Positions 3,601 to 64,000 of a DNA stretch of 64,000 bases are shown piece by piece. Under the pieces are notes generated by a model that did no database searches, was not told the DNA's origin, and saw nothing but the letters and a program-made list of their open reading frames with translations. Position 1 is the stretch's first letter; each line of letters begins with the position of its first letter. A program made the position numbers and the translations under genes. Source of the DNA: a virus; the IMG/VR virus record IMGVR_UViG_3300045988_122191, positions 44,922 through 108,921 of that record, one strand, 5' to 3'.

Positions 3601-6600
3601 GTTAAGCGGTTTTAAAGCAGCAACGCCCGAAGAGCAAAAATATGTCGATCTACTCCGTGAAGCAGAGGCCGCTTACGTACAAGCGATGGACGCTGCTGAA
3701 GGAAAAAGCGTTGAAGAAATCATTGGTGATGGGTTTGCAGCGGACGGAGCCTTATCTTCTTTGGTTGATGACTTTTATAACCTTGGTGACGCTGGAGATG
3801 TAACCGAGCAGTCTGTTTTAGCGCTTGCTGGTGAATTTGACGAGCTGGATACCTTCATGCAAATACATGGTATCACCGCGCAACAACTTTGTGATTACTA
3901 TAATAACCTAGCAGACGCCACCGACCGCGCACTATCTTCCGAAGAACAGTATGGTTACGTATTACAAGATGTAATCTCCTTCGGGAAGAGTATGCAAAAT
4001 TATCAAAATATGTCGAAGTCTTATACGCCGTATGATGAGACTGTAAAGGCATATGATAATATGATGCAGTATCAAAAGACTGGTATGACTGGTCTTGGCA
4101 ACGAAAGCTATTGGGGTTTTTTGAAGGAAAACTTCACGGGTTTCGATGATGTTGATATCGACAATGTTGGAGAGAAAAGGAAGCAAGCAGAAAAACTATT
4201 AAGAGAGTATGACTCGATCTACAGAAATAGAGATAAGGATGGCAACTTAACGGCGTCCGGTGTTCAAGCATTCTTTGATAAAATGAGTTCCAACAAAAAG
4301 GTGCAAGACATACTGAAGAAAAATGGAGACTCATTCACAAAGGATAAGAATGGCGATTATGACTGGAACATCCCGGTTAGTCACTTTAAAGAGGTTGCAG
4401 AAGCACTCGGTCTGTCAAGAGAAGGGTTTGAGTCTTTGATTGCTGCGGCTGGGAACTATGTTGATATAGACTGGTCAGACGACGCCGGAATGAACTATTT
4501 TGAGCGGCTTAAGAAGTACGCGAAAGAAGCTGGAGACTCTATAGAGAATACGAAAGAGTATACAGTTGCATCCAAAGAAGCTATCTCAAAAGCGTCAGAG
4601 GCTGCAGGGAAAACTGAAGAAGAGTTCTCTAAAAAATATCAGGAAAAACAAAAGAAAATTCTGTATACAGACCTCGGAAGCGGGTATTACCAGACTGATT
4701 ACAGCTCTATGGAAAAAGCCGCGAAAGATGCTGGCACAAATGTAACTAGGTATGTACAAGGGCTTGAAGCATCTATGGGCAAGAAGATTATACTGTCTAT
4801 GGATGTTGATACAGTAAATGCTGAAAAAGAGATTGGTACGTTTGTAGAGGATGAAAACGGTAAAACGATCCAGGTCTATTCAAAGGCAGATCCAGAATCT
4901 ATTGAGAGAATAAAGAAGGAGTACGAGGGACAGGACGTCACTATCAAAGTTCGCACCCAGTACGGCGGCGAGACAAAGACAGTCGAGGCAGCAGGTGACG
5001 CCGGTAATGAAAAAATAATTAAGGTCTCTGTGGCTGGCATAGAACAGGCAGGTACGCAGCTAGACGCACTTCAGGGTAAGTACGAAGCACTTCGGTCTAA
5101 GCCAAATATTACAAAGACTGTCACAACGAATTACGTAGAGAATCACACCATCAATACAATCAAGAAGACAACATCGTCCGGAAGCAATTCTAACCGCTAT
5201 GCTGGCTTGACCTTAAACAGCAGTAGCGGAGGCGCTAGACGGAGACAGACGAATGGGTCTAAGGCTAACGGTACTGCTTTCGCTCAGGGTACTTCTGGTT
5301 TCTGGGGCGCTGGAGGCTCTGGTACTGCTCTCGGTGGTGAAGTCGGCCCAGAGCTATTGGTGAGAGATGGCTCGTTCTATATAATCGGGCAGGACGGTGC
5401 GGAGTTCTTTGATTATCGTTCTCATGATATAATCTTTAATGCCGCTCAGACGGAAGAGCTTTTTAAGAAGGGTAAGCTTCGCGGCTCTGACACGCGCGGC
5501 AAGACAGCTATGGCGGACGGTACTGCTTTTGCCGGGGGAGCCGGGGGAAAAAATAACTTTGGCAATCCGAAACCTGGTGTCCGTGGTGACAGCAGTTTGA
5601 AGTCAGGAGGCTCCTCTGGTTCCAGCAAGAAGTCAGGCGGGGGTAAAAAAAAGACTGGCGGCGGAAAGAAAAAGGGCGGCGGTAAAAAGAGAGGATCCGG
5701 CTCAAAGTCAGATGCCGAATTTTTCGATTGGGTCGAGGTCAAGCTTCAGCGGATTGAAGAGGCTATTGAGAAGATTGGTATTGCAGCTGATAGCGTTTAT
5801 GGCACCACAAAAACTCGGAACGATGCTTTGAGAGAGAGTATCAAAAAACTCAATAGTGAAATTTCTTTGCAGGGCAAGGCGTATAATTATTACATTAAGA
5901 AGGCAAATTCTGTTGGCTTGAAAAAAGAGTATAAGAACAAAGTCCAGAATGGCGCGATTGATATTGATAAGATTTCCAATAAGAAATTAAAAGAGAAAAT
6001 CAGTCAGTATCAAGAGTGGTACAACAAAGCTCAAGATTGCAAGAAGCAAGTAGAAGAACTCAAGGTTAGCGTCGGTGACGCTTATAAAGAGATCTTCGAC
6101 AACTATTCTAAGCGAGCACAGGAAACCCTTGATAGGCTTGAAGATCATCGTGATTCTATACAAGCATTTATTGACCTTGCAGAAGAAGCTGGTTATAAGA
6201 TAAGCTCGAAGTATTACGAGGTTATGGTTGAAAGCGAAGGTAAGACTAGTGCGCGTCTTATCGAAAAGAGAAAAGGACTTGTAGAAAAACTGAATAAGGC
6301 GGTTGACTCAGGATTTGTTAAGACCGGGTCTGAAGCATGGTACGAGATGCGTCATGAGATCGACCAGCTTACCACCTCTATCATTGAAGCAGATGAAGCT
6401 ATAAAGAAGTATCAGAACGAACTAAGACAATTAAACTGGGACAAGTTTGACGACATGCAAGATGGCTTTTCAAAGCTAACAGACGAAGCCGAATTTCTGA
6501 TTGATTTGATGAGCGAGAAAGACTTGTTTGACGATAACGGCGCTATCACTAACGAGGGTATTGCCACAAGAGCATTGCACGCTCAAAATTACAACGTATA

Positions 6601-9304: not shown

Positions 9305-12300
9305 TGGCTATTCGCATTCAGTTTGATGGAACTGGGTCGCCAGAGTGCCCAACTCTAGTGTTAGCAAAGCGCGGTGGAGAAAAGCTTGGCGTTTTAAATA
9401 CGGCTGATAATATCAGCTTGTCAGATAGATTGAGTGATTCATGCGAACTATCTTTTGATATATATAAAGAATTCGACGGTAGGGTCTGTCCTATATGGGA
9501 TAAGGTAGTTGACTTTAAGTTAGTCTGGTGTAAAGAGTGGGATAAGTGGTTTTCCATCTCTGTTAACACACAGGAGTCTTCTAGCGTTATGAAGAGTATA
9601 ACTGCAACAAGTTTGGGCGAAGCCGAGCTGTCTCAAATTTTACTGCACGACATTGAGATTAACACGGAAGATGACATCGACAGGGACGATTACGATGAAA
9701 ACTTCCCTACTATTCTCTATCGCCCGGACAGACCTGACGCGTCCCTTCTCCATCGTCTAATGGAGAAAGCGCCTCACTATTCTATTGGTCATGTAGATTC
9801 GACGATAGCAAAACTGCAGCGGACATTTTCTTTTGATGGCGATTCTATCAAAGATGCTTTCGACGCCGTTGCAGAAGAGATTGGCTGTCTGTTTGTTTAT
9901 CCTTCCGGGTCTACTGATAAAGGAACCCCATCCCGAACGGTAGAAGTGTATGACTTGGAACGTGCCTGCCTAGACTGCGGTTATAGGGGTGAATTTGACG
10001 GCAACTGCCCGGAGTGTAATAGTTCTAATATTAACGAGGGGTATGGTCAGGACACAACAATCTTTGTTTCTACGGAGAATCTCACCGACGAGGTGTCCTA
10101 CGAAACAGACACTGGTTCTGTGAAAAATTGTTTTCGACTAACTGCTGGCGATGACCTGATGACGGCGACGGTTCGCCTATGCAATCCAAGTGGCGGCGGA
10201 TACATTTGGTGTATTACGGATGACACCAAGGAAGATATGTCTGACGAGCTAGTAGCAAAAATAAATAGCTATGATGAGCTATGTCATCATTACGATGAAG
10301 AGGCTGGCAGCTCGATCGACGCCACCATTCTAGTTTCCTACAACGAGCTTGTAGATAAGTACAAGTCGATGAACGAAAACTTAGAGAAGATCACCTCTCC
10401 TATCGCTGGCTACTCTAATCTGGTCAAGGCTTACTTTAGCGCGATAGAGTTCGGCAGCTACTTACAGACATCCATGATGCCAACCTACGAGCACCAGGAA
10501 ACGAATGCTGCGGCACAAGCTGCTTTGCTAACAACAGACAACCTCTCCCCTATTGCGGTGTCCAAGCTGACTTCTAGTACGTCAAAGGCTACAGTTGAGA
10601 GCGCACTAAAGGCAATGGCGAAAGTGTTTATTGACACAAGCAGATTTAAGTTTACTATCAACACAACTTCATGGGTAAATACAGAAGGAAACACTCCAAC
10701 GTGGACAGGCAATTTTACTGTTACTAGCTACACTGAAGAAGGAGACGTGGCAACGTCGAGTACAATTTCTGTTGTCGTAACAGACAATTATGCCGACTAC
10801 GCAAAGCAACTTGTAGAAAAGAAGATTGCCATTTCAGACACTGAGGATGTTAGTATTACTGGTTTATTCAAGCTGGAGCTGGAGCAATTCACAAATAATC
10901 TAAAGAAGTACAGCATGGATTGTTTGGATGAATTTGAGGATTGCTGCCAAGACGTTCTAAATATCTTGACGGAATCCGGTGGTGGCGAAACAACCTCTAT
11001 TATGTACGACCAGTATTACCTGCCGTACTACAACAAACTGCTTGCGATACAAGCGGAGAAGGATGTTCGCAGCTCAGAGCTTATGATTATCCTGGGCGAC
11101 GAGGGGGCGGAGACGGCTTCGGATGAACCGGTGCTTGGGGTAAAGCAGTATATCGAAAGGGCGCAGGAAGAGATTCGGGGCGCTCTCGATTTGGAGACAT
11201 ACCTAGGTCACGATTTGTGGGTTGAGTTTTCTTCTTACCGGAGAGAGGATGAATATTCTAACGACAACTTCATCTCTGATGGACTGACTGACTCAGAGCT
11301 TGTTGACCAGGCTTTTCAGTTTATCGACAAGGCTAAGAAAGAAATCTACAAGTCTGCGAACCTGCAGCATACTATTACAGCTACATTAAAGAATCTTTTG
11401 GTCATCCCAGCGTTCGCGCCGATAGTTGACTACTTCTCTGTAGGGAATTGGATTCGGGTTAAGGTTGATGGCGCAGTATACAGACTAAGGCTTGTTAGTT
11501 ATGATCTTGACTATTCAGATATGGATAGCCTGTCTGTCGAGTTCTCCGACGTAACTAAGACGCTTAGTGGTACAGCTGATGTGGCGGATATTCTATCCCG
11601 CGCATCGTCTATGGCGTCTACCTTTGACTACGTAACAAAGCAGGCAGTCAAGGGTTCCGACGCGTCTGGGATCCTTTCTAACTGGACGGAAAATGGTCTA
11701 TCCACAACACACACAAAGATTATAGACAGTGCCGACAATCAGAACATGGTTGTTGACCAGCACGGGACGCTTTACAGAAAGTTCGATCCGATGACTGAGA
11801 AGTACGAAGACATCCAGATGAAGATCATCAACTCGACTATCGCTATTACAGATGACAACTGGAAGTCTACCCGCGCAGCTCTTGGTCGGTTCTTCTATGT
11901 CAATCCAAAAACCAAAAAGTACACTGAGGGGTACGGCATCAATGGTGAAGTCCTTTGCGGCAAACTGTTGCTAGGTGAGTCGCTGGGAATCTACAACTCT
12001 GATAACAGTATGCGGTTTGACGCCGACGGTCTGACCGTAACAAATGGTACGAACACAGTTACTATTGACCCCAAGGAGGGAGACTCGGTATTGTCGATAG
12101 TCAGTGAGAATGGAACTGTGATTTCGTTTAACAAGGATGGCACAGCAAACTTCACAGGCAACGTTAACGCTACTTCTCTATCCACTGGTGGCAAAGGGTC
12201 TATTGAATCTACAAACGACGGAATCTATATTGCAGCGGATGGCTCTATTTATATTGGCAAATACAACGAGAGTGTACAAAGATGTGTTAGCGAGATAAAA

Positions 12301-30482: not shown

Positions 30483-31661
30483 TCACTCCAATACTTTGTA
30501 GTCGTTCAAATACCAATACCCTTTCTTGTTCTTGTACAGACCTGCGCCGAACAGGATATTGTATTGAGCGAAAGGCTTCTTATCAAAAATAGACTTACGA
30601 ACCGTGAGTCTTGCCTCGTTACCAGTCCCGATAGACCGAACTGTTGTGGCAACACCCCACACTCCGTTAGGCCCATTCAGGTCAAACGTCTCAAGAACAA
30701 TCAGCTTTCTTCTGTCTTGCGGATCATTGGTCGTGATGTCTATGTACCCCATTAGTCCAAGCTGATCCATGATCCTACTCCTCACATCAGCCTCTTCAAT
30801 ACCAAGACTTAGAACATTGCGCTCACATTCCTCCAATAAGCCGGGCATATCTGTGATCGTATAAGACTTTAGCTCATTGCCCTTCACGCCAACGTCTGTC
30901 GCGTGTCGCTTTACTATTTCACACATCGGCCCTTCTTTAAGCTTTGTCTTCTTAATAGATTTGGCCGTGCCATCATTAAAGAACTTGAAGATGTCGTATA
31001 TTCTTTGCAACTCACGGGTGTTGCCATACTCAGAAAAGAACCCTATGCGGATTAGATTTAAGAGTTGTCGCTCATTACACGACGTCTCTGATCTAATTCG
31101 AATGAGTGTCTCCATAAATGTCTTCGGTTTCTTCTGGTGATACATGGCATAGAGTTGCTGCGGCACAACTTTGTTAAGATACTTTACAGAGCTGATACCT
31201 TTGGATACGATCTTTCTGTCCGGGTCAAACATGTACTGGTCAGACGACGCACCAAACATCGGGGGCGTAATCTTCAGCCCGTATATCTGTGCAAGCTTAG
31301 TGCCGTTTCTGATATCCTCATCCTTTGCTGGATTATTTAGATAACTCGTCACAAACTCATACGGATGATAACAACGCAACCACGCACACAAAAACCCAAC
31401 CAGACAATAGCTAATAGAGTGATTGTAACCAAACTGATATGACGCACTGTCCTCCAGTATCTGAAGGAACTCTTTTGCTTCTTCTTCGGCCACTTCTCGT
31501 GGCTTATCTGACTTACTACAATACCCGTCAAGAATTTTTGGAAGCGCAGCGTCTAATCTATCTTTGTCCTTTCTACCAATGGCTCGGCGGATATTGTCAC
31601 TTTCAGAACCAGACAACCCGCAGATTTGTTGCAGGAATTTAATCGTGTCTTCCTGATAAAT
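30483..31661 (-). CDS. dnaE: DNA polymerase III alpha subunit, C-terminal segment (exon 2)
   Basis: The reading frame is open upstream of the annotated TTG as ...YQEDTIKFLQQICGLSGSESDNIRRAIGRK, matching DnaE [26 protein letters not shown]. Pol III alpha C-terminal region follows. Confidence 0.8.
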   Translation of the reverse strand: MYQEDTIKFLQQICGLSGSESDNIRRAIGRKDKDRLDAALPKILDGYCSKSDKPREVAEEEAKEFLQILEDSASYQFGYNHSISYCLVGFLCAWLRCYHPYEFVTSYLNNPAKDEDIRNGTKLAQIYGLKITPPMFGASSDQYMFDPDRKIVSKGISSVKYLNKVVPQQLYAMYHQKKPKTFMETLIRIRSETSCNERQLLNLIRIGFFSEYGNTRELQRIYDIFKFFNDGTAKSIKKTKLKEGPMCEIVKRHATDVGVKGNELKSYTITDMPGLLEECERNVLSLGIEEADVRSRIMDQLGLMGYIDITTNDPQDRRKLIVLETFDLNGPNGVWGVATTVRSIGTGNEARLTVRKSIFDKKPFAQYNILFGAGLYKNKKGYWYLNDYKVLE

Positions 31662-32618
31662 TAGATCCGTTTTATTATGTGCTATGTATCTCTTTCATCT
31701 TAATCGCATCTTCGAGCGGGATGCCTCGACGGATTCTAGCTCTTAACGTCGTGTATTTTATTCCCGTTCTTCTGGCCCATTCTGCCATGGTTAATGTTTC
31801 GCCATTGTAAGTAAACAGTTTATTGCTTGATTGGTTATTGCATTGTGATGTATGGTTAGACCACCTACAATTCGACGGGCAGTAATCTTTTGAGTTATCT
31901 ATCCTGTCAATTGTACATTCTTGTGGGGCCGCGTACTCGTTATATCCATTCTCGATTGCCCACTCTGAAAACGCCGTAAAATCGTTTCGCCATTCTTCGC
32001 ATACCGCAATGCCTTTCCCGCCATAATACTTATAGTTTTCAGAATTCTTATTGTAACAACGGTTTTTAATACCAGCCCACACACGATACAGTCTTGTTTT
32101 CGACGCTTTATGTGTCGTCATTCTTTCTCTAACTAGCTCTCTTTGAAGACACCCGCATGAACGAGTGTCTCCGGTAATTAGGTCACGGCTTGACACTACC
32201 TTTTCTTTGCCACAGTCGCATCGGCAACGCCACGTTGCGTTTTTTGCCTTATCGCTACCAGCTCTATCGACTACCAACAGTCTTCCAAACTGTTGCCCTT
32301 TTAATTGATACATACATTCACCTCCTTCATAATTTATTTACATAGCACTTAGTTCGCTAAACTATCCTCTACCATTTCGATAGAGCGTAGACTATATCTT
32401 CATCCGTTTTATCCGGATGCCCACCGCTTCGAACCGCCGATCGCTTGCGGTCCTACTTGCATACGCAATAGTCGTTGAACCTTTCTCTGTTCGAGACTTG
32501 GCTGCTGATTGCCCAATCTACATTCTTTTCAAACCATCACGCTTATCTTTGTTTCAAAATTACGTTGTGGCGAATATAGCTCTAAGGGGTTTCCAGCAAT
32601 TCAATGGGTTTGCAAGCG
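31659..32618 (-). mobile_element. intervening sequence in dnaE: putative group I intron carrying an HNH homing endonuclease ORF (boundaries approximate)
   Basis: About 960 nt separate DnaE ...ELLADNNG(LEIVPV) from (DL)IYQED.... It holds ~290 nt of ORF-free sequence upstream of the HNH gene. The HNH ORF has its own SD (AAGGAGGTG) and ends ~15 nt before the exon-2 homology. Confidence 0.55.
31675..32313 (-). CDS. HNH homing endonuclease (AP2-like plus HNH plus C-terminal HTH)
   Basis: RLYRVWAGIKNRCYNKNSENYKYYGGKGIAVCEEW, HNH motif IDRIDNSKDYCPSNCRWSNHTSQCNNQ, and C-terminal MAEWARRTGIKYTTLRARIRRGIPLEDAI. Confidence 0.8.
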   Translation of the reverse strand: MYQLKGQQFGRLLVVDRAGSDKAKNATWRCRCDCGKEKVVSSRDLITGDTRSCGCLQRELVRERMTTHKASKTRLYRVWAGIKNRCYNKNSENYKYYGGKGIAVCEEWRNDFTAFSEWAIENGYNEYAAPQECTIDRIDNSKDYCPSNCRWSNHTSQCNNQSSNKLFTYNGETLTMAEWARRTGIKYTTLRARIRRGIPLEDAIKMKEIHST

Positions 32619-34598
32619 CATATTACTATGCACCGGGACTATCTCTAATCCATTATTGTCCGCAAGCAACTCGTCAATCATTGGCGACGGGTTATGATGT
32701 GGAACTCTACTTATCAAATCATTTCTATACGACGCGCCAGACGGGCGAATACACGCAGTCACCAACGACATATCAAAGATCGACTTCGTGTTGAAGTCCT
32801 TTAGCATCTTTCCTGCAAAGGGAGATTCCATCTGAAAGATGCCGATATTGGAAACCATCATGTCTTCCCAAACCTTTTGGTCACCCCAATCTATTTCATG
32901 TGACTTCGGGTATGGGATGTTTGCCAGTTTGCAAGCGTCACGAATAATTTGTAGCGTACTTAGAACAAGCATGTCGTACTTAACGAGAGACACCTCATGG
33001 ATTTCTTCCATGTCAATCTGAAGTACGATACCGCTATCCTTGTGGTGAAAAACGCCATAGTTATCATCTAATGTAACAGGGCTGATCACAATGCCAGCCG
33101 GATGTACAGATTGTGATACTCTTGTATTCAGGAACCCATCAAAATAATAGAACGTTTCTTTGTATCTCTCTCTGCACGTTTCTGCATCCTTTCCGTAATC
33201 TGCTTTAATCTTTGCCGCTAGACTTACTGGATATGGGTTTTCGTTTTTGTCCGCTTCCGGATGTTGCTCTGCCCATTTATGTCTGAACCCACGCACAATC
33301 TCTTCGATAGTCGCCAAGCCTTTTAGTGTACCGCATGATGGAACGAACGCAGTCTTCCGTTGCCCGAATCGTTCAATAATGTAATTGAAGATCTTAGGCC
33401 GGTCATCTTCAATAACGTCTGTGTCGATATCGCCTACTTCAATCCGGTCCTCATTGCAAAAGCGGCTGAATACCGTATGCCATGTTTCCGGGTTAACATC
33501 TGTAATATCTGTCACATAAGCAACTCTTGACCCAGCTACACTGCCACGCCCAGGACCTGTTACAATTCCATTCTCATGACACCATGTAAGAATCTCGCTC
33601 ATGGATTGCATGAACCCGCACATCCCAAGTTTTGTGAATACTCTAAGCTCTTCTTTAATTGCGTCTCGGAACGCTTGTTCTTGCTCTCTTGGGATGATTC
33701 CGGCCTCTAACTTTGCTTCTAGCTTTTCGTTAATATTCTGGATAAATTTTTCTCTATCTTCTTCTGCAGACCCATAAAGGATTGGGTATTTCAAAGAAGT
33801 ATCTAATTCAAACTCCTCAACCTGATTTGCCATCAAGACTGTATTGTCTATCGCGGCCTGCCATGCTTCTTCTGGGATAGCGTCTTGTTTTTTAAAAGCT
33901 TCCCCCAGTTCCTCGCGCGACTTATACGTTAGATCAAAATCATCTTCCGTGTCATAATGCTTACTCTTTGCATAAGCAAGCAACGACCGACACTCAGCGT
34001 AGTATTGGTCGATACTGTGCGTGTCTGTTGCCGCAATCAAAGGGATGCCATACCTTTGAGACAGCGCTGCCAAGTGTCTGTTATAGACAATCTGATCTTC
34101 ACAATCGTGCGGTTGGATCTCAAGGTAGTCATACTTCTTTACGAGCTTCTCGTAGTACGGATGACTTACGTCCAGCTTGTTCAGTGGTGAAGCCAAACAA
34201 GCGGACGTTTTGATAATATTCGGAGAGATATTCAAAAACTCATCAAACGAAAGTCGCCCGACGTAGTATTTATGTTCTTCATCCGTTGACATACTAAGCA
34301 ACTTATTAAGTTCCAAAAACCCTTGTCGGTTCTTCGCTATCAGAATCGTATGATAGTTATCTCTCACTTTCTCATGTAGAGATTCCGTCAAATAAATTTC
34401 CACGCCATGTAGATACTTGACACCTGCTGCATCACAAGCCATCTTCTTGGCAACCCATCCACGGATGTTGCCATGCTCGGTGAAGCAAATAGCCTTCTGC
34501 CCAAGCTGCTTTGCCTTCTCTATGTAAAGGTTAAAATCTGTCGTCGAGTCCAACAGCGAATAGTCGCTGTGAACATGATACGCAACATAATTATCCAA
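32601..34598 (-). CDS. dnaE: DNA polymerase III alpha subunit, N-terminal segment (exon 1; the last ~6 codons before the stop are probably intron-encoded read-through)
   Basis: PHP domain start YHVHSDYSLLDS. Palm/fingers motifs ...KYDMLVLSTLQII..., IGIFQMES and ACIRPSGAS. Homology to DnaE is lost at ...GLEIVPV. Confidence 0.8.
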   Translation of the reverse strand: MDNYVAYHVHSDYSLLDSTTDFNLYIEKAKQLGQKAICFTEHGNIRGWVAKKMACDAAGVKYLHGVEIYLTESLHEKVRDNYHTILIAKNRQGFLELNKLLSMSTDEEHKYYVGRLSFDEFLNISPNIIKTSACLASPLNKLDVSHPYYEKLVKKYDYLEIQPHDCEDQIVYNRHLAALSQRYGIPLIAATDTHSIDQYYAECRSLLAYAKSKHYDTEDDFDLTYKSREELGEAFKKQDAIPEEAWQAAIDNTVLMANQVEEFELDTSLKYPILYGSAEEDREKFIQNINEKLEAKLEAGIIPREQEQAFRDAIKEELRVFTKLGMCGFMQSMSEILTWCHENGIVTGPGRGSVAGSRVAYVTDITDVNPETWHTVFSRFCNEDRIEVGDIDTDVIEDDRPKIFNYIIERFGQRKTAFVPSCGTLKGLATIEEIVRGFRHKWAEQHPEADKNENPYPVSLAAKIKADYGKDAETCRERYKETFYYFDGFLNTRVSQSVHPAGIVISPVTLDDNYGVFHHKDSGIVLQIDMEEIHEVSLVKYDMLVLSTLQIIRDACKLANIPYPKSHEIDWGDQKVWEDMMVSNIGIFQMESPFAGKMLKDFNTKSIFDMSLVTACIRPSGASYRNDLISRVPHHNPSPMIDELLADNNGLEIVPVHSNMRLQTH

Positions 34599-42021: not shown

Positions 42022-42309
42022 TTATTCCACCGCCTCCAACCTTTTTAATCCAAGAGTTTTAATAACAACGTATACTGCGGACGGCGTCACCTTGATCTTT
42101 CTTGCGATATCACTGGCGCTCATCCCGTCTAGATACAAAGACGCCACTTCGTCAATATCAATCTTAATACGGCCATCTCTCACTTTGCTCTTTCGCTTTC
42201 TATGTACCTGCTCATTCGGGCGATTCTGCGCTACCCACTGACCATAACTCAAACCAGCTTCCTTAGCCGCAGCCGCCACTTCATCAATTGTCATTGGATT
42301 GCAGCTCAT
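42022..42309 (-). CDS. HTH DNA-binding protein
   Basis: Start chosen at MSCNPMTIDEV after GAAGGAGAGGA. HTH-like MSASDIARKIKVTPSAVYVVIK. Confidence 0.4.
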   Translation of the reverse strand: MSCNPMTIDEVAAAAKEAGLSYGQWVAQNRPNEQVHRKRKSKVRDGRIKIDIDEVASLYLDGMSASDIARKIKVTPSAVYVVIKTLGLKRLEAVE

Positions 42310-43843
42310 AATACTTATCCTCTCCTTCGGTATCTTCATCGTTATTGTCCTTCTGGCTACCAGCGGCGACCTTCCCGCCAATCAGCCCGGAAATCAACGC
42401 GTTAATGTCAAGACCAGTCGAACTCTTAACACCCTCAGTTACCTGAGTCATCGTATTCATGATGTTGTTTGCAAGCTGGCCTGAGGCGTCACCAAACATC
42501 TTAATTTCCCCGACGTTGGCATAGCCATCACCAATTGCCGCAGCGATCTTAGGTAACTGCTCGAAATATACTTTCAGTGTGTCGAGTTCCATCTGCTGCT
42601 TTGCCGCATCGCCATACTCCTTCATTGCTTCTGCCTTCTTCAGAATACCAGCAGCCTCTGCTTCTGCCTTCGCCTTGATCGCCTCAGCTTCTGCAACACC
42701 CTTAGCGGAAATTGCATCAGCCTCCGCAATACCAGCAGCTCTTACAGCCTCTGCTTCCTGTTCCTTTGCAAATCTCTCTGCTTCTGCGCGAGCTTTCTGA
42801 GCTTCCGCCTCCTTCTGGGTCTCAAAGAGTTCTGCCTCTGCCTGCTTCTGTCGTTCGTACTGGTCTGCGTCCGCCTTCTGCTGGGCTGCATACTTCTCTG
42901 CTTCAGCCTGCTTCTTAACAGTAGCCTCCAGCACTTTCTCCTTAATCGCAACCTCTCGTTCCTTTAGCTCAATCTCTTTCTCCTGTCGAGCCAGGTTTGC
43001 GTTAGCGGTTGCAATCTCTACGGTACGGCGCTGCTCTTCCTTCTGAATGTCGTAAGCTGCTTCCGCCTCTGCTCTCTTGGAGTCGGCCTGCTTCAGCAGC
43101 TCGGACTTCTTAATAGCAAGTTCGTTCTGCCGCTCTGCAATTTCCGTGTCGCTCTTAACACGAGCATCATTCGCTTCACGCTCTGCCACCGCGTTTGCAA
43201 TAGCGACTTCCTTATCTGCGTTCGCCTTTGCAATAGCTGCATCCTTTTTAATCTGAGAGATGTTGTCAATGCCAAGATCTTCAATGACATGGTTTGCGTC
43301 AGAGAACCGCTGCACGTTAAATGAAACCAGTTCAAGACCCATCTTTTGCAGGTCGGGGATTACGTTTTCAGAAACTTTCTCGACGAAAGTTTTACGATCT
43401 CCAATCAGTTCCCGCAGCTTCATTGTGCAGATAATCTCTCTGATATTACCTTCAAGAACTTCAGCGACAATCGCCCCGACCTCTTCGCTGGTCTTATTCA
43501 GGAAATTCTTTGCCGCGACCTCGACCATCTCCGGTGTAGAACCAATCTTCACGTTAACAGCAGAATCAACGTAGATATTGATACAGTCTGCTGTCGGCAC
43601 TGCATCCCCAGTTCTAATGTCCAGAGGGATCAGCTTGAGAGAAAGCTCGTCCACCCGTTCAAAGAAAGGAATCTTCACGCCAGCTTTACCAATAAGAACC
43701 TTCGGCTTCTTTCTTACGCCGGAGATAATCAGCGCTTTGTCGGGCGGAGCCTTCACATATCCTCTAGCAAGAACACCGGCGACACCAACTGCCGCTACAA
43801 CAGGCACCGCAACTGTGAGACCACTCATAAGTTCAGTAATCAT
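42284..43843 (-). CDS. SPFH/flotillin-like protein (YqiK/FloT family)
   Basis: N-terminal hydrophobic segment, SPFH core, then a long Ala/Glu/Lys-rich coiled coil and C-terminal region. 519 aa. Confidence 0.75.
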   Translation of the reverse strand: MITELMSGLTVAVPVVAAVGVAGVLARGYVKAPPDKALIISGVRKKPKVLIGKAGVKIPFFERVDELSLKLIPLDIRTGDAVPTADCINIYVDSAVNVKIGSTPEMVEVAAKNFLNKTSEEVGAIVAEVLEGNIREIICTMKLRELIGDRKTFVEKVSENVIPDLQKMGLELVSFNVQRFSDANHVIEDLGIDNISQIKKDAAIAKANADKEVAIANAVAEREANDARVKSDTEIAERQNELAIKKSELLKQADSKRAEAEAAYDIQKEEQRRTVEIATANANLARQEKEIELKEREVAIKEKVLEATVKKQAEAEKYAAQQKADADQYERQKQAEAELFETQKEAEAQKARAEAERFAKEQEAEAVRAAGIAEADAISAKGVAEAEAIKAKAEAEAAGILKKAEAMKEYGDAAKQQMELDTLKVYFEQLPKIAAAIGDGYANVGEIKMFGDASGQLANNIMNTMTQVTEGVKSSTGLDINALISGLIGGKVAAGSQKDNNDEDTEGEDKYYELQSNDN

Positions 43844-43846
43844 TAT

Positions 43847-45880
43847 TCATTCCTCCACTATGTAATTATTTAAAAATCCTTCTTCTGAAAGAATCGGGAT
43901 TCCCATGCTAACAGCTTTCTTGAGTTTCGAGCTTCCGCCCTGCGGATCATTGCAAACCAGACAAGTCGTGTCTTTTGTCACACTTAACGACACGCTCCAG
44001 CCCGCACCTTTTGCAACCTCCTCGAACTCTTTTCTTGACTTAAACGTCTTCAGTTTGCCAGTCACGCAAACCGTCATTCCTGCGTTCTTCTTGTTTTCCC
44101 TAACAGTAATAGCTAAATAGCAACTCAACGACGTAATCTCCTCAGAATGTCTTTTGACATAGTCGTTAATCCCATCACTGGTTTTTGCGCCAACCCCATT
44201 GAGATTGCTCCAATCCGCATCAGTATTTGCCATATCGCACAACGTCTCAGCAAACGAGCACTCGCCCATTACTTCAAAGATTGCCTCAGCTATAACCGGT
44301 GCAGAGGATTTCCCTACGCCAGGAATTCCTATTGCAACAATAAAGTTTTCTGCCGCACAAGTCTTGCTTTTCTCTATCGCGGCCAGCAGCTTGTCCACGC
44401 TGGCGTCACCAAACCCGTCGAGCTGCTTCATATCATCACAATATCTGTCGAGCTGGTAAACATCAGCAAGATTCTTCAACCATCCGTTGTTGACGAAAAG
44501 CTTGATGCGCTCCGTAGACAGGCCATCAATATTCATCCCTTGCCTAGACACGAAGTTTGAAATCCTGTCTACCAAAACCGCAGGACAATTATCGTTACTA
44601 CACTCAAGACGCTGAGCTTCGTTACTTGATACAACTCTAGCGGCTTCCCCGCAGACCGGACAGTGTTCCGGAATTGAATACGTGTCACTCTGAGTAAGGT
44701 TACGAACAACCATCGGGATGATTTGATTAGCCTTGATGACTTCAATTTCGTCGCCAATCCCAAGCTTTAGCTTTTTAATCTGGCTTACATTAGAAAGGCT
44801 CGCCCTGCTTACAGTCGTGCCATCAATTTCTACAGGGTCGAACACAGCGACTGGGTTGATCGTGCCGGTCCTCGTAGTATTCCACTCAATGCTTCTAAGC
44901 GTTGTCAGATTTCTCTCCTGATAGAACTTAAAGGCGAAGCTATGATTTGGGTGGTGAGAAGTCTCGCCTAGCGACCGCCCATATTTCTGATCGCAGAATG
45001 TTCCGACCACTCCGTCGATTGGGTATGGCGTACGCTTCATTGTCTCCATGGTACGGCTCACAAATTCCTTGACGTTAGCACCGCCCTTACCGGAAGAAGG
45101 GACAGGCACAATCCGAGCGGTCGTAAACCCTAGGTCGCTCAGCACCTGCATGGCGTCTCGAAAATCTTTATCTTGAAATCCAGGTGTAGAATTTCGCCAC
45201 GCTATGAAACTGACATTTCGTCTACACAAAACAGCACTGTCTAGCTGTCTGACAGTTCCACTCACAAGGTTGCGGGGGTTCTTATAGCAGGTGTTTTCGG
45301 CATTTTTGATTTTTTCAAAATCTTCATAGCTGATCACTGCTTCCCCATCTACATACAGCTTGCCTTGATATGGAATGGTTAACGGGATATTAGTGAACTC
45401 TTTTGCGTTATGAGTGATATCCTCGCCGACAGTACCATCTCCTCGTGTCTCGGCGCGTTTAAGGACGCCATGTTCGTATGTAAGAGCGCAAGTAATACCA
45501 TCTAGTTTCGGCATCAATACGAACTCATGCTGATTAAAATACGCAACAAACTCATCTAGCCCGGTCGTCTTAGCGAGGGACAGTAACTTGTGTGTATGCG
45601 TTACCTTTCTCAGATCACTAACCACTTTGCTACCAACAGTTCTTGTCGGAGAGCTTGAGTATGTAATACCTGTTTCTTTTTCAAGCCACGCTAACGCATC
45701 TACAAACTTGTCAAACTCCCTGTCGCTTACTACATTTTCGCCACCATTAAAATAGCTATCGTTGAGACAATTTATAAAATATATTAGCTCTTGCATGAGT
45801 TCGATGTCGTTAAGACGCTGCTGCTCTTTATCAAGTAATATCGGCTTATACATTGACATAAGCACAAACCCCAATTGCAA
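43847..45880 (-). CDS. ligA: NAD-dependent DNA ligase
   Basis: Adenylation motif PKLDGI, OB domain, zinc finger CPVCG...CSNDNCP, HhH region and C-terminal BRCT. 677 aa. Confidence 0.9.
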   Translation of the reverse strand: MQLGFVLMSMYKPILLDKEQQRLNDIELMQELIYFINCLNDSYFNGGENVVSDREFDKFVDALAWLEKETGITYSSSPTRTVGSKVVSDLRKVTHTHKLLSLAKTTGLDEFVAYFNQHEFVLMPKLDGITCALTYEHGVLKRAETRGDGTVGEDITHNAKEFTNIPLTIPYQGKLYVDGEAVISYEDFEKIKNAENTCYKNPRNLVSGTVRQLDSAVLCRRNVSFIAWRNSTPGFQDKDFRDAMQVLSDLGFTTARIVPVPSSGKGGANVKEFVSRTMETMKRTPYPIDGVVGTFCDQKYGRSLGETSHHPNHSFAFKFYQERNLTTLRSIEWNTTRTGTINPVAVFDPVEIDGTTVSRASLSNVSQIKKLKLGIGDEIEVIKANQIIPMVVRNLTQSDTYSIPEHCPVCGEAARVVSSNEAQRLECSNDNCPAVLVDRISNFVSRQGMNIDGLSTERIKLFVNNGWLKNLADVYQLDRYCDDMKQLDGFGDASVDKLLAAIEKSKTCAAENFIVAIGIPGVGKSSAPVIAEAIFEVMGECSFAETLCDMANTDADWSNLNGVGAKTSDGINDYVKRHSEEITSLSCYLAITVRENKKNAGMTVCVTGKLKTFKSRKEFEEVAKGAGWSVSLSVTKDTTCLVCNDPQGGSSKLKKAVSMGIPILSEEGFLNNYIVEE

Positions 45881-56848: not shown

Positions 56849-57053
56849 TCTTTCTTTTCACCTCTTCCTTCTTTAATAACTCAGCCTTTCTTCTTGCTCT
56901 TCTAATTACATCTCCGGCGGCCAGCGAAAGCGCGTATTTTTGGAATGGGCGTAGCTTCATTCCAGTTAGGTTACACCACCACTCAATATCTTTTTCTCGT
57001 TTTCTGCATCTCATCACACCACCATCACAATCCATGTTAAAATAATCTGACAA
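56817..57053 (-). CDS. hypothetical protein
   Basis: 78-aa ORF. Confidence 0.3.
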   Translation of the reverse strand: MSDYFNMDCDGGVMRCRKREKDIEWWCNLTGMKLRPFQKYALSLAAGDVIRRARRKAELLKKEEVKRKNEANQKLNSM

Positions 57054-57391
57054 ATATGAACCAGCTGATCCTGAACCAGGTTGATTTTCTTAAAGTTCGC
57101 CTTCAAGTCGTCAACACAAAAGTGAATAACGCAGTTCACTACCAGCATAACAAAAAACAGAACCGGTAGATTGAGCTTCAGATAAACCGCCACCGGCAGT
57201 ATCGTCATGAACGTCCAGCTAGAAGCGTGCATAAACAGTGCTGCGATATAGTCATGCTTGTACTTCTCTCCAGGAGAGTTCTTTCTCCACCAATCCTTCT
57301 GCTTCATACTGGCAAGCACACCTTGCAGATAATAGTCATCTACAATGTGAGCAAACAGCATTACCAATAACACAAATAACTTAGCCTGCAT
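57014..57391 (-). CDS. membrane protein (3-4 TM helices)
   Basis: Hydrophobic helices throughout 125 aa. Confidence 0.4.
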   Translation of the reverse strand: MQAKLFVLLVMLFAHIVDDYYLQGVLASMKQKDWWRKNSPGEKYKHDYIAALFMHASSWTFMTILPVAVYLKLNLPVLFFVMLVVNCVIHFCVDDLKANFKKINLVQDQLVHICQIILTWIVMVV

Positions 57392-57394
57392 TCA

Positions 57395-58363
57395 TCACAC
57401 CTCCGTAGCACCAGCAGAAATCAGAGCATTCCCGCAAGTAATTCTATCGCTGTCCTCTTCCTTGCTCGGGACAAACACGATGACATCCCAACCGGCGTCA
57501 ACCAGTGGCTGTTCAAATTTCCGGTAAACATCGTAATTCGTGTAGGTAGTAGACACGTCGAATCCATTCTGAACCGCAGAGTTTGTCTCGTGAATAGGCG
57601 TAATCTTAACGATGAACTTATCCTTGCTAAATAGCTCCCCCAGTCTAACAGGATCAATAATTGTATCGGCAGTCACTGCAAAATTCAGAGTGTACTTTCT
57701 CCCTACCGGATCAGGAAGCCCCCTTGCAATCTTAGAAATCTCATCCAGGCTGAGGCTCATGCCGCTGAACTGCTCCTCTCGTTGCTTATCGTCCGTACTG
57801 TTGATACTAAACTGCAGTCCTGCTTCGCCACCGTACCAACGATTCTTAACTCTACACCACACCATAAGGAACAACTTTAGGTGCGGATTATTCTTCGGTA
57901 ACATCGTAGAAACAACCGGGTGAATTGTTTTAGCGGTGATATACTTTCCTACCAGAGGTTTAAGCTCATCACGCGCAAAGAAAATAACGTCAGAATTAAA
58001 TGTTGGCTCGCCCATTCTTGCAAAATGCACGTTAAACCTATCCGTGTATTTAGTAGACTCGCCTTTTAGGATCGTTTCAATCTCATACTTGAGATCTTCG
58101 AGAGAAGCATTACCGTGAAATCCGTACTTTGGACAATCACAAAACTTGCATTTCATTGGGCACCCTTTCTGGGTGCTGATTGTTGCGACCCATTTCTTAC
58201 TGAGGTCAACCGGCTTGTTCTCTACGCCATTGATTTCCTTATGCAACCCAAGGAAATCTGCCTTAATATTATTCTCTTTACCGTAGTCTCCGACGGTCAG
58301 AAACTCCAGCTGTCTTTCTTCATCAACGTAAATCTTACCGGTGTGGGTGTTAACAATTCTCAT
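57395..58363 (-). CDS. radical SAM protein
   Basis: CX3CX2C as CPMKCKFC near residue 68. 322 aa. Confidence 0.55.
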   Translation of the reverse strand: MRIVNTHTGKIYVDEERQLEFLTVGDYGKENNIKADFLGLHKEINGVENKPVDLSKKWVATISTQKGCPMKCKFCDCPKYGFHGNASLEDLKYEIETILKGESTKYTDRFNVHFARMGEPTFNSDVIFFARDELKPLVGKYITAKTIHPVVSTMLPKNNPHLKLFLMVWCRVKNRWYGGEAGLQFSINSTDDKQREEQFSGMSLSLDEISKIARGLPDPVGRKYTLNFAVTADTIIDPVRLGELFSKDKFIVKITPIHETNSAVQNGFDVSTTYTNYDVYRKFEQPLVDAGWDVIVFVPSKEEDSDRITCGNALISAGATEV

Positions 58364-58928: not shown

Positions 58929-59212
58929 TTCGCGTCCCGCTCATACATTAGCCAGTAAACGCCTTTGCTATGACGCTCATCAAACAGTCTCCAAATATCC
59001 TCCACATCGGTTCCATTTGCAAACCCATGCCAATCCTCATCAAGAACCGTTCTCATATCCGCATCTTCAGTGACTGGAACATCTGTTAGATCGTCCCACA
59101 GTCCCTCCAACCTTGCATCTGTTGAATACTTCACTTGTGACCAACCCCTCCTCAGCCCATACATCAATTTCAGTACCAGAATAGTCGCTGTCGTCCAGTA
59201 CGATCTCCTCAT
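58925..59212 (-). CDS. hypothetical protein (overlaps an alternative ORF at 59067-59315; exact boundaries uncertain)
   Basis: Two overlapping - strand ORFs; an acidic protein. Confidence 0.25.
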   Translation of the reverse strand: MRRSYWTTATILVLKLMYGLRRGWSQVKYSTDARLEGLWDDLTDVPVTEDADMRTVLDEDWHGFANGTDVEDIWRLFDERHSKGVYWLMYERDAK

Positions 59213-59477
59213 TGTTATACTTGCGCTTCACAATCTCGTAAGCCTGTTCCTTGCTCTCTGCCTCAATTTCCAGCTCTCTCCGGAGTTCTTCCGTAACAGC
59301 TACAACGTACTTCATACGGACCTCACTTTCTTCCGATCACAACGTGCTTTACACGCCCACACTTCTTACACATATAGACAAGCTCAATTCCATCCGGCAT
59401 AGTTACATTATCACCAAACTTCTTTACACCCGTCACATAATGAAAGTCGTGTTTGCAAAACAACTTTGACAACAACT

Positions 59478-61855: not shown

Positions 61856-62266
61856 CTAATCCCATAGAAGATAAAAGACTTCTTTGAACAGATCAAAGAA
61901 GTCGTTCTTGTATTTGTCGGCCATATTTTGTGCCCACATATCTCTCTCTAGCAAGCTCATCTCTTCGGGAGCCTTCTCAAACCATTCTGACGCCCGCATA
62001 TTCTTCAGGCATTCAATCATCTTATCAACAACCGCCTGCCATTCCTCATCAGTATATCCGCCTGGGATTCCCCATCGTGTATCTGAGTATCTGGTCATTA
62101 CTCTCGTCATCGTTTTGATGAACCAAAGTGGCATATCATATTCTGCTTCTCTGGTGAATCCGTGTTTCAGAAGGTACCTCCGCTCTTTAAAGTAATAAGG
62201 TATCCCAAACACGTTCCGCCACCAGTGAATACCTTCATGTTGAAAACTTTTCTTCCAATCTACCAT
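61856..62266 (-). CDS. hypothetical protein
   Basis: 136-aa ORF downstream of the RT locus. Confidence 0.35.
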   Translation of the reverse strand: MVDWKKSFQHEGIHWWRNVFGIPYYFKERRYLLKHGFTREAEYDMPLWFIKTMTRVMTRYSDTRWGIPGGYTDEEWQAVVDKMIECLKNMRASEWFEKAPEEMSLLERDMWAQNMADKYKNDFFDLFKEVFYLLWD

Positions 62267-62295: not shown

Positions 62296-62535
62296 TTACT
62301 CATTACCCTTCTTGTCTTTCTGCTCACCGCCATTTTCCTTCACACAAATCGGAAGCCGCCGAACATGGTAGTCCTTTCTTTCTCTTACCACGTTATACTT
62401 CTCACAGGTGTGTGTCGGGTATGGATGAGTCCCAGGGAGTCCGTACATGGCAGCGAGAGAGCTAGAGATACCAGCTCTGTACTTAGAGAATCTACACTCA
62501 TTACACAATACTGTTTTAGTTTTCATATATGACAC
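62296..62535 (-). CDS. small Cys-containing protein immediately downstream of the RT
   Basis: 79 aa; CNEC...HTCEKY...C pattern. Stop-start spacing of 8 nt to the RT suggests co-transcription. Confidence 0.35.
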   Translation of the reverse strand: MSYMKTKTVLCNECRFSKYRAGISSSLAAMYGLPGTHPYPTHTCEKYNVVRERKDYHVRRLPICVKENGGEQKDKKGNE

Positions 62536-62543
62536 CTCGTCCT

Positions 62544-63716
62544 TTAGTTTTTGAGATCCTTCTTCATCGTGGCTTCAATATCAAAGCCAAACTTCTGACT
62601 ATAGCGAGTGATAACTCCATCAATACTTCCTCTGTTAACCATTCGATAGTAGCTCATAAGACCGAGCACATATTGCAGTTGCTCAAGAGGCCAATAAGTT
62701 CCGCTCTTTCTGTCCTTCGCGTAATTGAAAAGCATCGCCTCGAAGTTGCGCTTCTTCTTATACCCAATCGTGATCTGGTTGTCCTTGTTGATCATCACAC
62801 CGAGTACCCAATTCTTATGATACGAGGGGCCGTAATGAGTTTTCTCATCTTTGATGAGATAACTGGCCCCGAAAAGTCTAAACAGATTTTCAATCTTTCT
62901 GATAATGAAGCTCTTATCAAACTCAATACCACAGCTGATGTTCATATCATCAGCATATCTGGTATACGCGAACCTTCTACCCTTTTCATCAGGGTTGTTT
63001 TCCGGGTTCTGCAGGCTACGCAGAAACTTACTGAACTCAAAATCAAACGGAATCATAATCAGATTGGTCAGCATCGGGCTGATCGGCGTTCCCATAGGTA
63101 GACCTCCATCCAGGAAGCAAAGCGACAGAGCTTTTCTAAGCTCTTCTCTCCCGCTTTTGCACTCCATAATGAGACAGAACGGGTAAATCATAGACAGCGC
63201 GTTCCATACAAACTCCGGAGTGGTATTAGGAAAGAAACCGCTGATGTCAGTCTTTAAATACCACTTGCTCTTATTCCACTGATGGACTTTTGCGGCGTCT
63301 ACACTACTTCTGTTTTTGACATAAGCGTATGCAGCGGCATGGCTGCTCGCATAAAACTCAGATTCTAACAGCAGTTTTAGCTCTCGCAGACAATTCATCA
63401 GCTCGTCGTCCGGCGCGTTAATCTCTCTCATGCCGCCGCTCTTTTTCGGGATAAAAAACTTGTGGTAATGCTCACGAATATCACTCTCCATCAGGCCATG
63501 GTGTTTCTTGTTGAATGTTCTTAACAAACCAATCTTTTTCTCAACATCAAACCCCGCTAAAATTCTTTCAGGAAGTCGCTCATATGTAAATGTTCTAGTA
63601 TACGGAGATCTTGGTGTTCGCTCCCGCACATTCTCACCTTGGAATAATGCGAGCATAATATCTTCTAAAGCAATTTGCTTGTACGGCTCTGTAATTCTAA
63701 CTGTTACATAAATCAT
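62544..63716 (-). CDS. reverse transcriptase, retron-type (or retron-like Abi/DRT)
   Basis: RT motifs 1/2 KKSGGMREINAP and motif 3 WYLKTDISGFFPNT. Pre-motif YAYVKNRSSVDAAKVH (cf. retron ...RSI.TNA..H). Motif 4 GLPMGTPISPMLTNL. Motif 5 YTRYADDMNIS. Thumb region VLGVMINKDNQITIGYKKKRNFEA (cf. the retron VTG...KR pattern). RBS AAGGAGA. Confidence 0.75.
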   Translation of the reverse strand: MIYVTVRITEPYKQIALEDIMLALFQGENVRERTPRSPYTRTFTYERLPERILAGFDVEKKIGLLRTFNKKHHGLMESDIREHYHKFFIPKKSGGMREINAPDDELMNCLRELKLLLESEFYASSHAAAYAYVKNRSSVDAAKVHQWNKSKWYLKTDISGFFPNTTPEFVWNALSMIYPFCLIMECKSGREELRKALSLCFLDGGLPMGTPISPMLTNLIMIPFDFEFSKFLRSLQNPENNPDEKGRRFAYTRYADDMNISCGIEFDKSFIIRKIENLFRLFGASYLIKDEKTHYGPSYHKNWVLGVMINKDNQITIGYKKKRNFEAMLFNYAKDRKSGTYWPLEQLQYVLGLMSYYRMVNRGSIDGVITRYSQKFGFDIEATMKKDLKN

Positions 63717-63820
63717 ATTATTCTCCTTGCTTTTATCTGAAACTATATATGGATTTGGATGTCAGTTGGCGATGCTGATCTCGGAGCCTGTTGCGGTGTA
63801 ATCCCAGTCTTGGCTTTTAT

Positions 63821-64000
63821 TGTTCGCCAGGATGTCGCTGCAGGTGGCGGATGTCGAACTTGTCGAACGAATATCCTTCTCGTTTTTTTTTGTTGGGAGG
63901 CTGCTCCTCATCAGAGAAGGGCTGTTTCTCATCAGAGAAGGGCTGTTTCTCGTCAGAGAAGATGCAACCTGGGTTGTTAAGCCTTCTTGGAGGTAGCAGA
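63821..64000 (-). CDS. 3' end of an upstream ORF (5' end lies beyond the window) with tandem PFSDEKQ repeats
   Basis: - strand frame open from the window edge: ...FSDEKQPFSDEKQPFSDEEQPPNKKKREGYSFDKFDIRHLQRHPGEQ*. Encoded by a 21-bp tandem repeat at 63903-63962. Confidence 0.35.
63903..63962. repeat. 21-bp tandem direct repeat (~2.7 copies)
   Basis: catcagagaagggctgtttct repeated; lies within the ORF upstream of the RT. Confidence 0.7.

Follow-up and report, generated by a model that had tools for sequence, protein, structure and literature searches.

The retrons Ec67 and Ec73, found on the phage-type genomes phiR67 and phiR73, belong to temperate P4-like elements of Enterobacteria, in which they are single-RNA defence cargo; their effectors are a Toprim fusion and a nucleoside deoxyribosyltransferase (NDT)-like protein. 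In the clade 1 retrons of types I-A (Ec78/Eco7 and Ec83) and II-A (St85/Sen2), a non-coding RNA (ncRNA) lies directly upstream of the reverse transcriptase (RT) gene and is closed by two inverted repeats, a1 and a2; a1 is followed by a branching G, and there is also an opposing G. The ncRNA consensus of types I-A and II-A1 has two opposing Gs (PMC7736814). We found an RT gene with an ncRNA of this layout at the end of a 64,000-nt stretch of viral DNA, positions 44,922 to 108,921 of the IMG/VR record IMGVR_UViG_3300045988_122191 (the window in what follows). The retron is complete, but the edge of the window cuts through its RNA gene. The sequence beyond that edge was read from locus L001, a part of a 108.9-kb metagenome contig that is identical to the window across an overlap of 11,457 nt (window position = 73717 - L001 position). 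Several metagenome contigs encode exactly the same RT protein.

The phage locus thus resembles the clade 1 retrons in the position of its ncRNA, in the a1/a2 repeats with the branching G and the opposing G, and in an RT that matches theirs and carries the YADD, VxG and xAxxH motifs. Several features set it apart from them. Its RT falls under the family cut-offs (162 bits against 235 for retron_St85_RT, NF038233), has AAKVH and VLG in two of the motif positions, and bears an N-terminal extension of ~55 aa relative to the Ec83 RT. PtuA/PtuB and NDT effectors are lacking. The template part of the RNA (msd) is hypervariable, unstructured for the most part, and 2-4 times longer than theirs; one RT appears to serve several ncRNA units, and the phage lineage looks virulent. 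Ec67-type RT profiles also match this RT; unlike Ec67 and Ec73, the phage module is conserved across a clade of contigs of ~45-150 kb and has another set of partners. Retron-like but distant RTs are also encoded by the Staphylococcus jumbo phages Machias/PALS_2 and by Klebsiella phage 4LV2017, and PHROG 2825 matches our RT at 4.9e-38. The nearest RTs in the phage database outside the clade are 24-30% identical (tblastn), and only one record in that database, the unannotated MT835544.1 from human faeces, belongs to the same clade, at 41% identity.

A preliminary description of the window, made by reading the sequence, had called the RT retron-type from the motifs RSSVDAAKVH, DISGFFPNT, YTRYADD, VLG and KKKRN, all of which are present in the 390-aa open reading frame (ORF). 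Classification with hidden Markov models agrees with that call. The top 25 PADLOC matches are all retron RT models (RT_II-A, 6e-41; RT_I-A, 2e-38), retron profiles score 139-162 bits, and all 13 solved structures matched in the PDB are retron RTs, with the Ec83, Ec78 and St85 family at the top. Pfam recognises the generic RVT_1 domain only (2.9e-13). Since the scores lie under the cut-offs while retron models are still the best, we classify the RT from these profiles as retron-type and as belonging to no curated retron family. Residues Y254, D256, D257, H145 and G306 are invariant among 21 homologues, down to 43% identity, and the intact YxDD and other invariant residues predict a catalytically competent enzyme. 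In region X, DAAKVHQ aligns to DNAKIHQ of Ec83, with H145 invariant and N replaced by A (clade consensus DAVKxH). In region Y, VLG aligns to VTG of Ec83 and Ec78; L305 and G306 are invariant and T is replaced.

Diversity-generating retroelements (DGRs) and group II introns both occur in phage genomes, and the group II maturase model TIGR04416 does match the RT weakly, with 66 bits against a cut-off of 300; the other non-retron NCBIfam scores are 26 bits for Drt2 and 17 for Drt3a. The retron profiles score far higher. The preliminary description had argued against a DGR, and a search of the 64-kb window and the 21-kb L001 locus indeed found no template/variable repeat pair. Rfam finds no intron RNA domains at E up to 10, and the architecture of a1/a2 with a priming G is specific to retrons. 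We therefore assign a negligible probability to a DGR or group II intron RT, both of which are excluded by these tests as far as sequence allows.

The preliminary description had also expected an msr/msd RNA upstream of the RT, and had failed to spot its a1/a2 repeats by eye. Folding and a covariance search that took in the sequence beyond the window recovered an a1/a2 stem and two covarying hairpins of the msr, so that the expected RNA does lie directly upstream of the RT, with a1 outside the window (Table 1). The repeats had escaped notice because a1, the priming G and both msr hairpins lie ~35-107 nt past the window end, where they are seen on L001; of the whole RNA, only a2, the opposing G and the 3' portion of the msd fall inside the window. 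This unit, which we call unit B, measures ~374 nt in total and sits within a gap of 492 nt between the ThiF and RT genes of L001. RNAfold predicts the a1-a2 pairing (z = -4.3). No Rfam family matches the msr, the RT-1 to RT-19 motifs included. An orphan structured RNA, the skipping-rope RNA, was seen in the same gap; it scores 38.9 bits in L001 and 50.3 bits in the related locus L005, above the gathering threshold, and is deleted in locus L003.

Table 1. Coordinates of the ncRNA units, the RT gene and neighbouring features
Feature	Window position	L001 position	Strand	Remarks
Unit B, a1 TATCTGAAA	64099-64107 (equivalent)	9610-9618	RT strand	beyond window end
Unit B, priming G		9619	RT strand	directly 3' of a1
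Unit B, msr hairpin 1 TTTCTATTT-GAAA-AAATAGAAA		9623-9644	RT strand	
Unit B, msr hairpin 2 CTCTTACCG-GAA-CGGAAGAG		9645-9664	RT strand	followed by conserved tail
Unit B, variable template, ~290 nt		between conserved tail and a2-proximal block	RT strand	
Unit B, conserved block ATCCAAATCCATATATAG		9957-9974	RT strand	last base G
Unit B, 3' part of msd	63743-64000		minus	includes a2-proximal block 63743-63760 and hypervariable centre
Unit B, opposing G	63743		minus	just 5' of a2, faces priming G
Unit B, a2 TTTCAGATA	63734-63742	9975-9983	minus	9-bp pairing with a1 TATCTGAAA
RT ribosome-binding site AAGGAG	63724-63729		minus	between a2 and ATG; kept in L001-L007
Retron-type RT, 390 aa	62544-63716		minus	YADD; AAKVH for NAxxH; VLG for VTG
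Unit A, second complete ncRNA		a1 4666-4678; priming G 4679; a2 5022-5034		13-bp stem
21-nt x3 tandem repeat	63899-63961			within msd; Tandem Repeats Finder score 105
Skipping-rope RNA (Rfam RF02924)	~64122-64202 (equivalent)	9515-9595		between ThiF stop and a1; L005 5547-5627
79-aa ORF (76 aa by gene callers)	62296-62535		minus	Cys-containing; starts 8 nt after RT stop
136-aa ORF	61856-62266		minus	next after 79-aa ORF

The same arrangement recurs in relatives. Directly upstream of the RT in 84 loci, an inverted repeat of 8-12 nt encloses 227-357 nt. In an alignment of 24 sequences, the 13 pairs of the two msr hairpins are formed in 86.9% of cells, against 65.8% in shuffles; 11 of the 13 pairs show compensatory changes, and slid registers pair in at most 52.6%. 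For hairpin 2 taken singly, 93.8% of cells are paired, seven of eight pairs have compensatory changes, and none of 500 shuffles reached the observed score. A covariance model built from a1, the G and the hairpins gave 216 matches at E up to 1, all of them on the RT strand and with distant relatives included. Counts at the level of units refer to 95 distinct units among the best 150 of these 216 matches. The G at the priming position is present in 94 of the 95, and an a1/a2 stem of at least 7 bp abuts it in 89. The stems themselves vary and compensate, as in TATCTGAAA/TTTCAGATA, CATTTGCAAT/ATTGCAAATG, GATTCACGAC/GTCGTGAATC among others. A G almost always stands just 5' of a2, where the commonest endings are ATGTAG, ATATAG, TTGTAG and CATTAG, and in 60 loci the median gap between the end of a2 and the RT start is 24 nt. 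Judged by their sequences, the RT and the RNA together appear to fit the definition of a retron in all but the msd hairpin.

Many relatives carry further complete units, mostly directly 3' of the RT. Locus L022 has three tandem units, each with its own a1/a2; we counted at least five units in L012, four in L220 and three in L118. Even when only the best 150 model matches are considered, 48 of 73 loci have two or three units. Some units are kilobases away from the RT. This is so in the phage of the window itself, whose second complete unit (unit A) lies ~5 kb upstream of the RT-adjacent unit and ~5 kb past the window end. Unit A heads the upstream operon, before the genes for a 129-aa protein and a putative ubiquitin-like (Ubl) protein, and has the same CCATATATAG block before its a2. 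Its msd cannot be aligned between L001, L002 and L003, even though the flanks are 92-97% identical. In L003, the 3' end of a tRNA-like sequence (GGTTCGAGTCC...CCA; positions 1-40) was seen just before unit A, at a place where L001 and L002 have unrelated sequence.

Alternatively, the msr-like elements might be structured leaders or stable small RNAs that are not reverse transcribed, with the RT using another template or being protein- or self-primed. Units do lie among tRNA and tmRNA genes and near the skipping-rope RNA, some are far from the RT as just described, and no conserved hairpin is found in the msd. Nevertheless, these elements show the full retron signature, with msr hairpins, an opposing G and an a1/a2 stem that directly adjoins a conserved G. 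One copy of the unit is almost always placed just before the RT start codon, at a median distance of 24 nt, and the RT is retron-type by every profile. We consider this alternative very improbable.

We investigated the msd sequences. Across the clade they measure ~200-260 nt and are A/C-rich on the RNA strand. No coding signal was detected, the longest open frames being 57.6 codons against 51.3 in shuffles (sense) and 51.5 against 49.8 (antisense). In a test for a stop-free frame like that of DRT2 (a defence-associated RT), fewer than 3% of units were significant, with no depletion of stop codons on either strand. Likewise, a long stable hairpin was not found: the median z is -0.8 over 69 distinct msds, and 9% of them fall below -2. 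The msd of unit B departs from this pattern (z = -2.95) and is closed by a 9-bp stem, GCTGCAGGT/ACCTGCAGC.

The msd diverges several-fold faster than its flanks. Between L001 and L003, which encode an identical RT protein and have flanks 92-95% identical, blastn alignments end at the msr and resume ~20 nt before a2 in both units. Over 42 pairs of loci with a median RT DNA identity of 98.2%, the medians are 100% identity for the msr and 84% for the msd. In pairs at a median RT identity of ~94%, msd identity is 68.5%, and the baseline for unrelated msds is 51%. Indels and mixed substitutions affect the central part; most of the substitutions are transitions, and a DGR-like adenine bias is not seen. 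No msd cassettes are shared between units, positions or phages; 133 msds fall into 62 groups. Repeats upstream of the RT belong to the same variation. The three copies of GGATGTC (at 63757, 63830 and 63849, within 63717-64000) and the 21-bp tandem repeat reported in the preliminary description do exist, but neither is conserved: the 21-nt repeat occurs only in L001 and L002 and is missing in L003, L005 and L007 at RT identities of 85-100%, and both are lineage-specific variation of the msd. GGATGTC occurs 15 times window-wide against 6.3 expected, a count reached by one of 100 shuffles. We rejected GGATGTC/ACATCC as a conserved element, ACATCC not being enriched near a2 across the clade.

These properties of the template bear on the possibility that the product, multicopy single-stranded DNA (msDNA), serves phage DNA metabolism, either as primers or single-stranded DNA (ssDNA) donors for recombination-dependent replication or in a DGR-like diversification carried out through a retron. 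The RT is located within the replication/early block, a distant relative has an RNase H gene just downstream, and the msd is the rapidly changing part. On the other hand, the msd has no homology elsewhere in ~74 kb of this genome, the msds of different units and phages are dissimilar, as their grouping shows, an adenine-specific bias is missing, and hypervariability is not predicted for a primer. Comparison of the intergenic RNA region with the 64-kb window and L001 gave only chance-level matches of 9-16 nt, and the msds of units A and B had no match in the phage database. We regard a role in DNA metabolism as improbable.

The RT and its ncRNA are linked to a set of conserved genes beyond the window. 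The conserved order is a small Ubl-like protein (c5), a protein of ~480 aa (c1), a JAB/MPN protein (c2), a ThiF/E1 protein (c3), the ncRNA and the RT. The c5 protein has 75-82 aa and a conserved KAD[N/G/S] followed by a variable tail of one to three residues. Its matches to ubiquitin and DUF2604 are weak, and an hhalign comparison with a ThiS sequence was negative; a Ubl identity is no more than hinted at. In two relatives (L052 1118-1738 and L072 726-1346) the Ubl-like protein was seen fused in frame to a protein of ~130 aa, which in this phage is encoded by a separate upstream gene (L001 5067-5456). As the junction comes right after the KADNA tail, the fused form may represent a polyprotein-like precursor, with the JAB protease as a possible processing enzyme. 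The c1 protein (477 aa), considered as a possible E2-like conjugating enzyme, has invariant N390, H392 and C398; Pfam, a PDB profile search, and Foldseek with an AlphaFold2 model (pLDDT 63) gave no family or fold match, and its alignment, tried as a query for locus searches, has no conserved stretch.

The other two proteins are readily recognised. In c2, the JAMM motif HxHx7Sx2D is invariant (H99-S-H101...S109..D112), and the AlphaFold2 model (pLDDT 82, pTM 0.80) matches Rpn11, CSN5 and JAMM1 in Foldseek (E = 1.5e-7, probability 1.0) and also the fold of Citrobacter BubCD. The c3 protein is a PF00899 ThiF protein (85.5 bits against a cut-off of 28.1), and is also matched by PADLOC E1-E2 and NCBIfam 6A-MBL cap2_3. 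ThiF/E1 and a JAB/MPN metalloprotease with an intact JAMM motif are likewise found in the Bil, Bub, CBASS Cap2/Cap3 and 6A-MBL modules. The 75-82-aa protein with its variable C-terminal tail is a further point of resemblance. The phage module differs from them in being phage-encoded, in being linked to a retron and in having no recognised E2; none was recognised anywhere in the neighbouring module. When the two downstream and eight upstream proteins were searched with PADLOC, no effector was found except the E1-like matches to the ThiF protein. A search seeded with the JAB protein found the RT downstream, in the order JAB-E1-RT, in 78 of 80 viral loci, the other two being truncated. This order holds even at 32-42% RT identity. 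Among loci in metagenome-assembled genomes (MAGs) with enough upstream sequence, JAB is present in 48 of 53 and E1 in 49 of 53.

The clade is large. We found at least 3,517 homologous RT proteins, and contigs that carry them include 241 IMG/VR viral contigs and 71 MAG contigs, mostly from Clostridia bins of animal and human guts. Most of the carrier phage contigs are free-standing at ~100 kb. The module is a stable, vertically retained part of a phage clade and does not look like sporadic cargo. The window encodes a Pol III alpha-type polymerase, a primase-helicase, NrdD, an NAD ligase, a C5 methylase and a GH25 lysin, which makes the context of the RT a phage replication/early block, in agreement with its earlier placement among early genes. 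No tRNA genes were found in the window. Beyond it, the module is flanked by phage tRNA arrays (L001 321-3565, L010 8160-10584, L047 9873-11186, L068 7918-8862 and L044 11579-11902), and the tRNA island of L047 includes a tmRNA gene; embedded in this way, the retron RNAs are part of an RNA-gene island. A distant relative on a 470-kb contig (L236 8363-14069) keeps the order of Ubl-like protein, c1, JAB, ThiF, ncRNA and RT, with the RNase H gene ~570 nt after the RT. JAB homologues of its subgroup are found on contigs of 200-470 kb, which could be prophages, very large phages or misassemblies.

The main rival explanation is a classical tripartite defence retron, used for superinfection exclusion or competition between phages. 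In that case, the RT-msDNA complex would restrain an effector until a rival phage perturbs the msDNA, whereupon the cell is shut down; the effector would be the module of c1, JAB, E1 and Ubl-like proteins, or c1 alone. All characterised retrons work in this way in the literature, the nearest RTs (Ec83, Ec78 and St85) are those of defence retrons, E1/JAB modules are found in defence systems, to which the E1-E2 and cap2_3 matches of the ThiF protein point as well, and the tight linkage of RT, E1 and JAB resembles that of an RT and its effector. However, this module is kept across a whole phage clade to 32-42% RT identity, unlike patchy accessory defence genes. The phage's own Pol III, primase-helicase, NrdD and ligase, together with the free-standing contigs of ~100 kb, suggest a virulent lifestyle, to which abortive infection would be of little benefit. 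Known defence retrons do not combine one RT with several hypervariable templates, and no known retron effector was found with PADLOC. We therefore give a defence or exclusion retron a limited, though real, chance of being correct.

We consider it probable that the locus is a genuine retron of a phage lineage whose msDNA complexes act in conflict, likeliest as decoys or antidote mimics, with the Ubl/JAB/E1 proteins as partner. The RT would bind the msr hairpins, prime from the 2'-OH of the G after a1 and copy the msd from its a2 end, so that each unit would yield its own branched msDNA, of up to perhaps 200-280 nt. The complexes of msDNA, RNA and RT may then act in phage-host or phage-phage conflict, and as decoys or antidote mimics they might neutralise nucleic-acid-sensing or retron-type defences of the host, the Ubl/JAB/E1 genes supplying a functional partner instead of a classical toxin. 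A role in conflict is suggested because the RT is conserved with Ubl, JAB and E1 across deep divergence on mostly non-integrated phage contigs, and because the template is the part that evolves fast and is multiplied in arrays. Retention throughout a deep clade, an apparently virulent gene content and fast-evolving template arrays also make the locus a poor fit to sporadic abortive-infection cargo. Phage PhiTE carries pseudo-ToxI repeats, which are tandem copies of a nucleic-acid antidote. In our working model, these repeats are an analogy for the ncRNA arrays only, having no sequence or structural relationship with them.

Several observations weigh against this interpretation. The RT lies under the curated cut-offs of all named retron families, and msDNA synthesis is predicted from the architecture of the locus. 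The msd lacks the long stable hairpin that retrons typically have, and its product may accordingly differ from theirs or be shorter. A search for msd targets in the phage database and in ~74 kb of this genome found none, and the fast divergence of the msd could in part reflect relaxed constraint. The linkage of the RT to Ubl, JAB and E1 could be inherited synteny in one phage lineage. Moreover, four MAG loci (L089, L095, L117 and L119) with at least 4.5 kb of upstream sequence have the RT and no detectable c1, JAB or E1 gene, so that the retron can exist without the module; in a fifth locus, E1 and the Ubl-like gene are present while JAB and c1 are missing. The functional step is the weakest of the explanation, the counter-defence role being a hypothesis.

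In its most specific form, the proposal is that one phage RT copies an array of diversifying templates into long msDNAs, which act as decoys or antidote mimics against host sensors alongside the E1/JAB system. The decoys would be aimed, for example, at effectors of host retrons, or at nucleases and sensors that recognise ssDNA or tRNA-like molecules. We put forward this version tentatively and think it unlikely to hold in full.

The preliminary description had proposed the two ORFs downstream of the RT as candidate effectors. Neither the 79-aa nor the 136-aa ORF has a significant family match in Pfam, PADLOC, NCBIfam or PHROG, and both occur almost only in relatives whose RTs are at least 91% identical. 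The 79-aa cluster is confined to such loci, while the 136-aa cluster is found in six of 84 loci, namely five close relatives and one distant locus. In many relatives, the position of the 79-aa ORF is taken by further ncRNA units. Effector roles for these ORFs are therefore unlikely.

Some other genes of the window are recorded here. Genes for a radical-SAM protein of 322 aa and, after it, a DUF3307 protein of 125 aa are located at 57014-58363 on the minus strand, and a gene similar to the former also lies upstream of the module in L236. A small DpnD/PcfM-like protein is found at ~59067-59315. Among the replication genes, a 519-aa SPFH/Band-7 flotillin-like protein, unusual for a phage, is encoded at 42284-43843 (minus strand), adjoining the NAD-dependent DNA ligase gene (43847-45880). 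The Pol III alpha-type polymerase (30483-34598, minus strand) is apparently split into a 665-aa ORF with the PHP, NTPase and finger domains and a 377-aa ORF with an HHH_6 match, with a 212-aa ORF between them.

Source databases label some proteins of this clade as 'retron-type reverse transcriptase' automatically. In the searchable literature we found no description of the clade or its ncRNA, nor of multi-template arrays, a comparable hypervariability of the msd or an association of a retron with E1/JAB; that on the RTs of Machias/PALS_2, 4LV2017 and PHROG 2825 likewise yielded no description of ncRNAs, arrays or Ubl/JAB/E1 linkage. Apparently, this is a large and undescribed phage-specific retron lineage.

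Bacteria use retrons against phages, and retrons also serve as genome-editing tools; here a retron belongs stably to a large phage lineage. It departs from described retrons in four respects: several templates per RT, templates of 200-260 nt with little structure, evolution of the template much faster than that of the flanking genes, and a constant linkage to E1/JAB. The decoy reading, if true, would make this the first retron with a counter-defence role, the first with multiple templates and the first with a functional link to Ubl conjugation. The RTs of this clade could be of use for DNA production with retrons, since they may accept inserts that are long and unstructured. Reverse transcription of the RNAs, if it occurs, would offer a natural case of one RT serving many templates, and would raise the question of what a phage gains by making msDNA.

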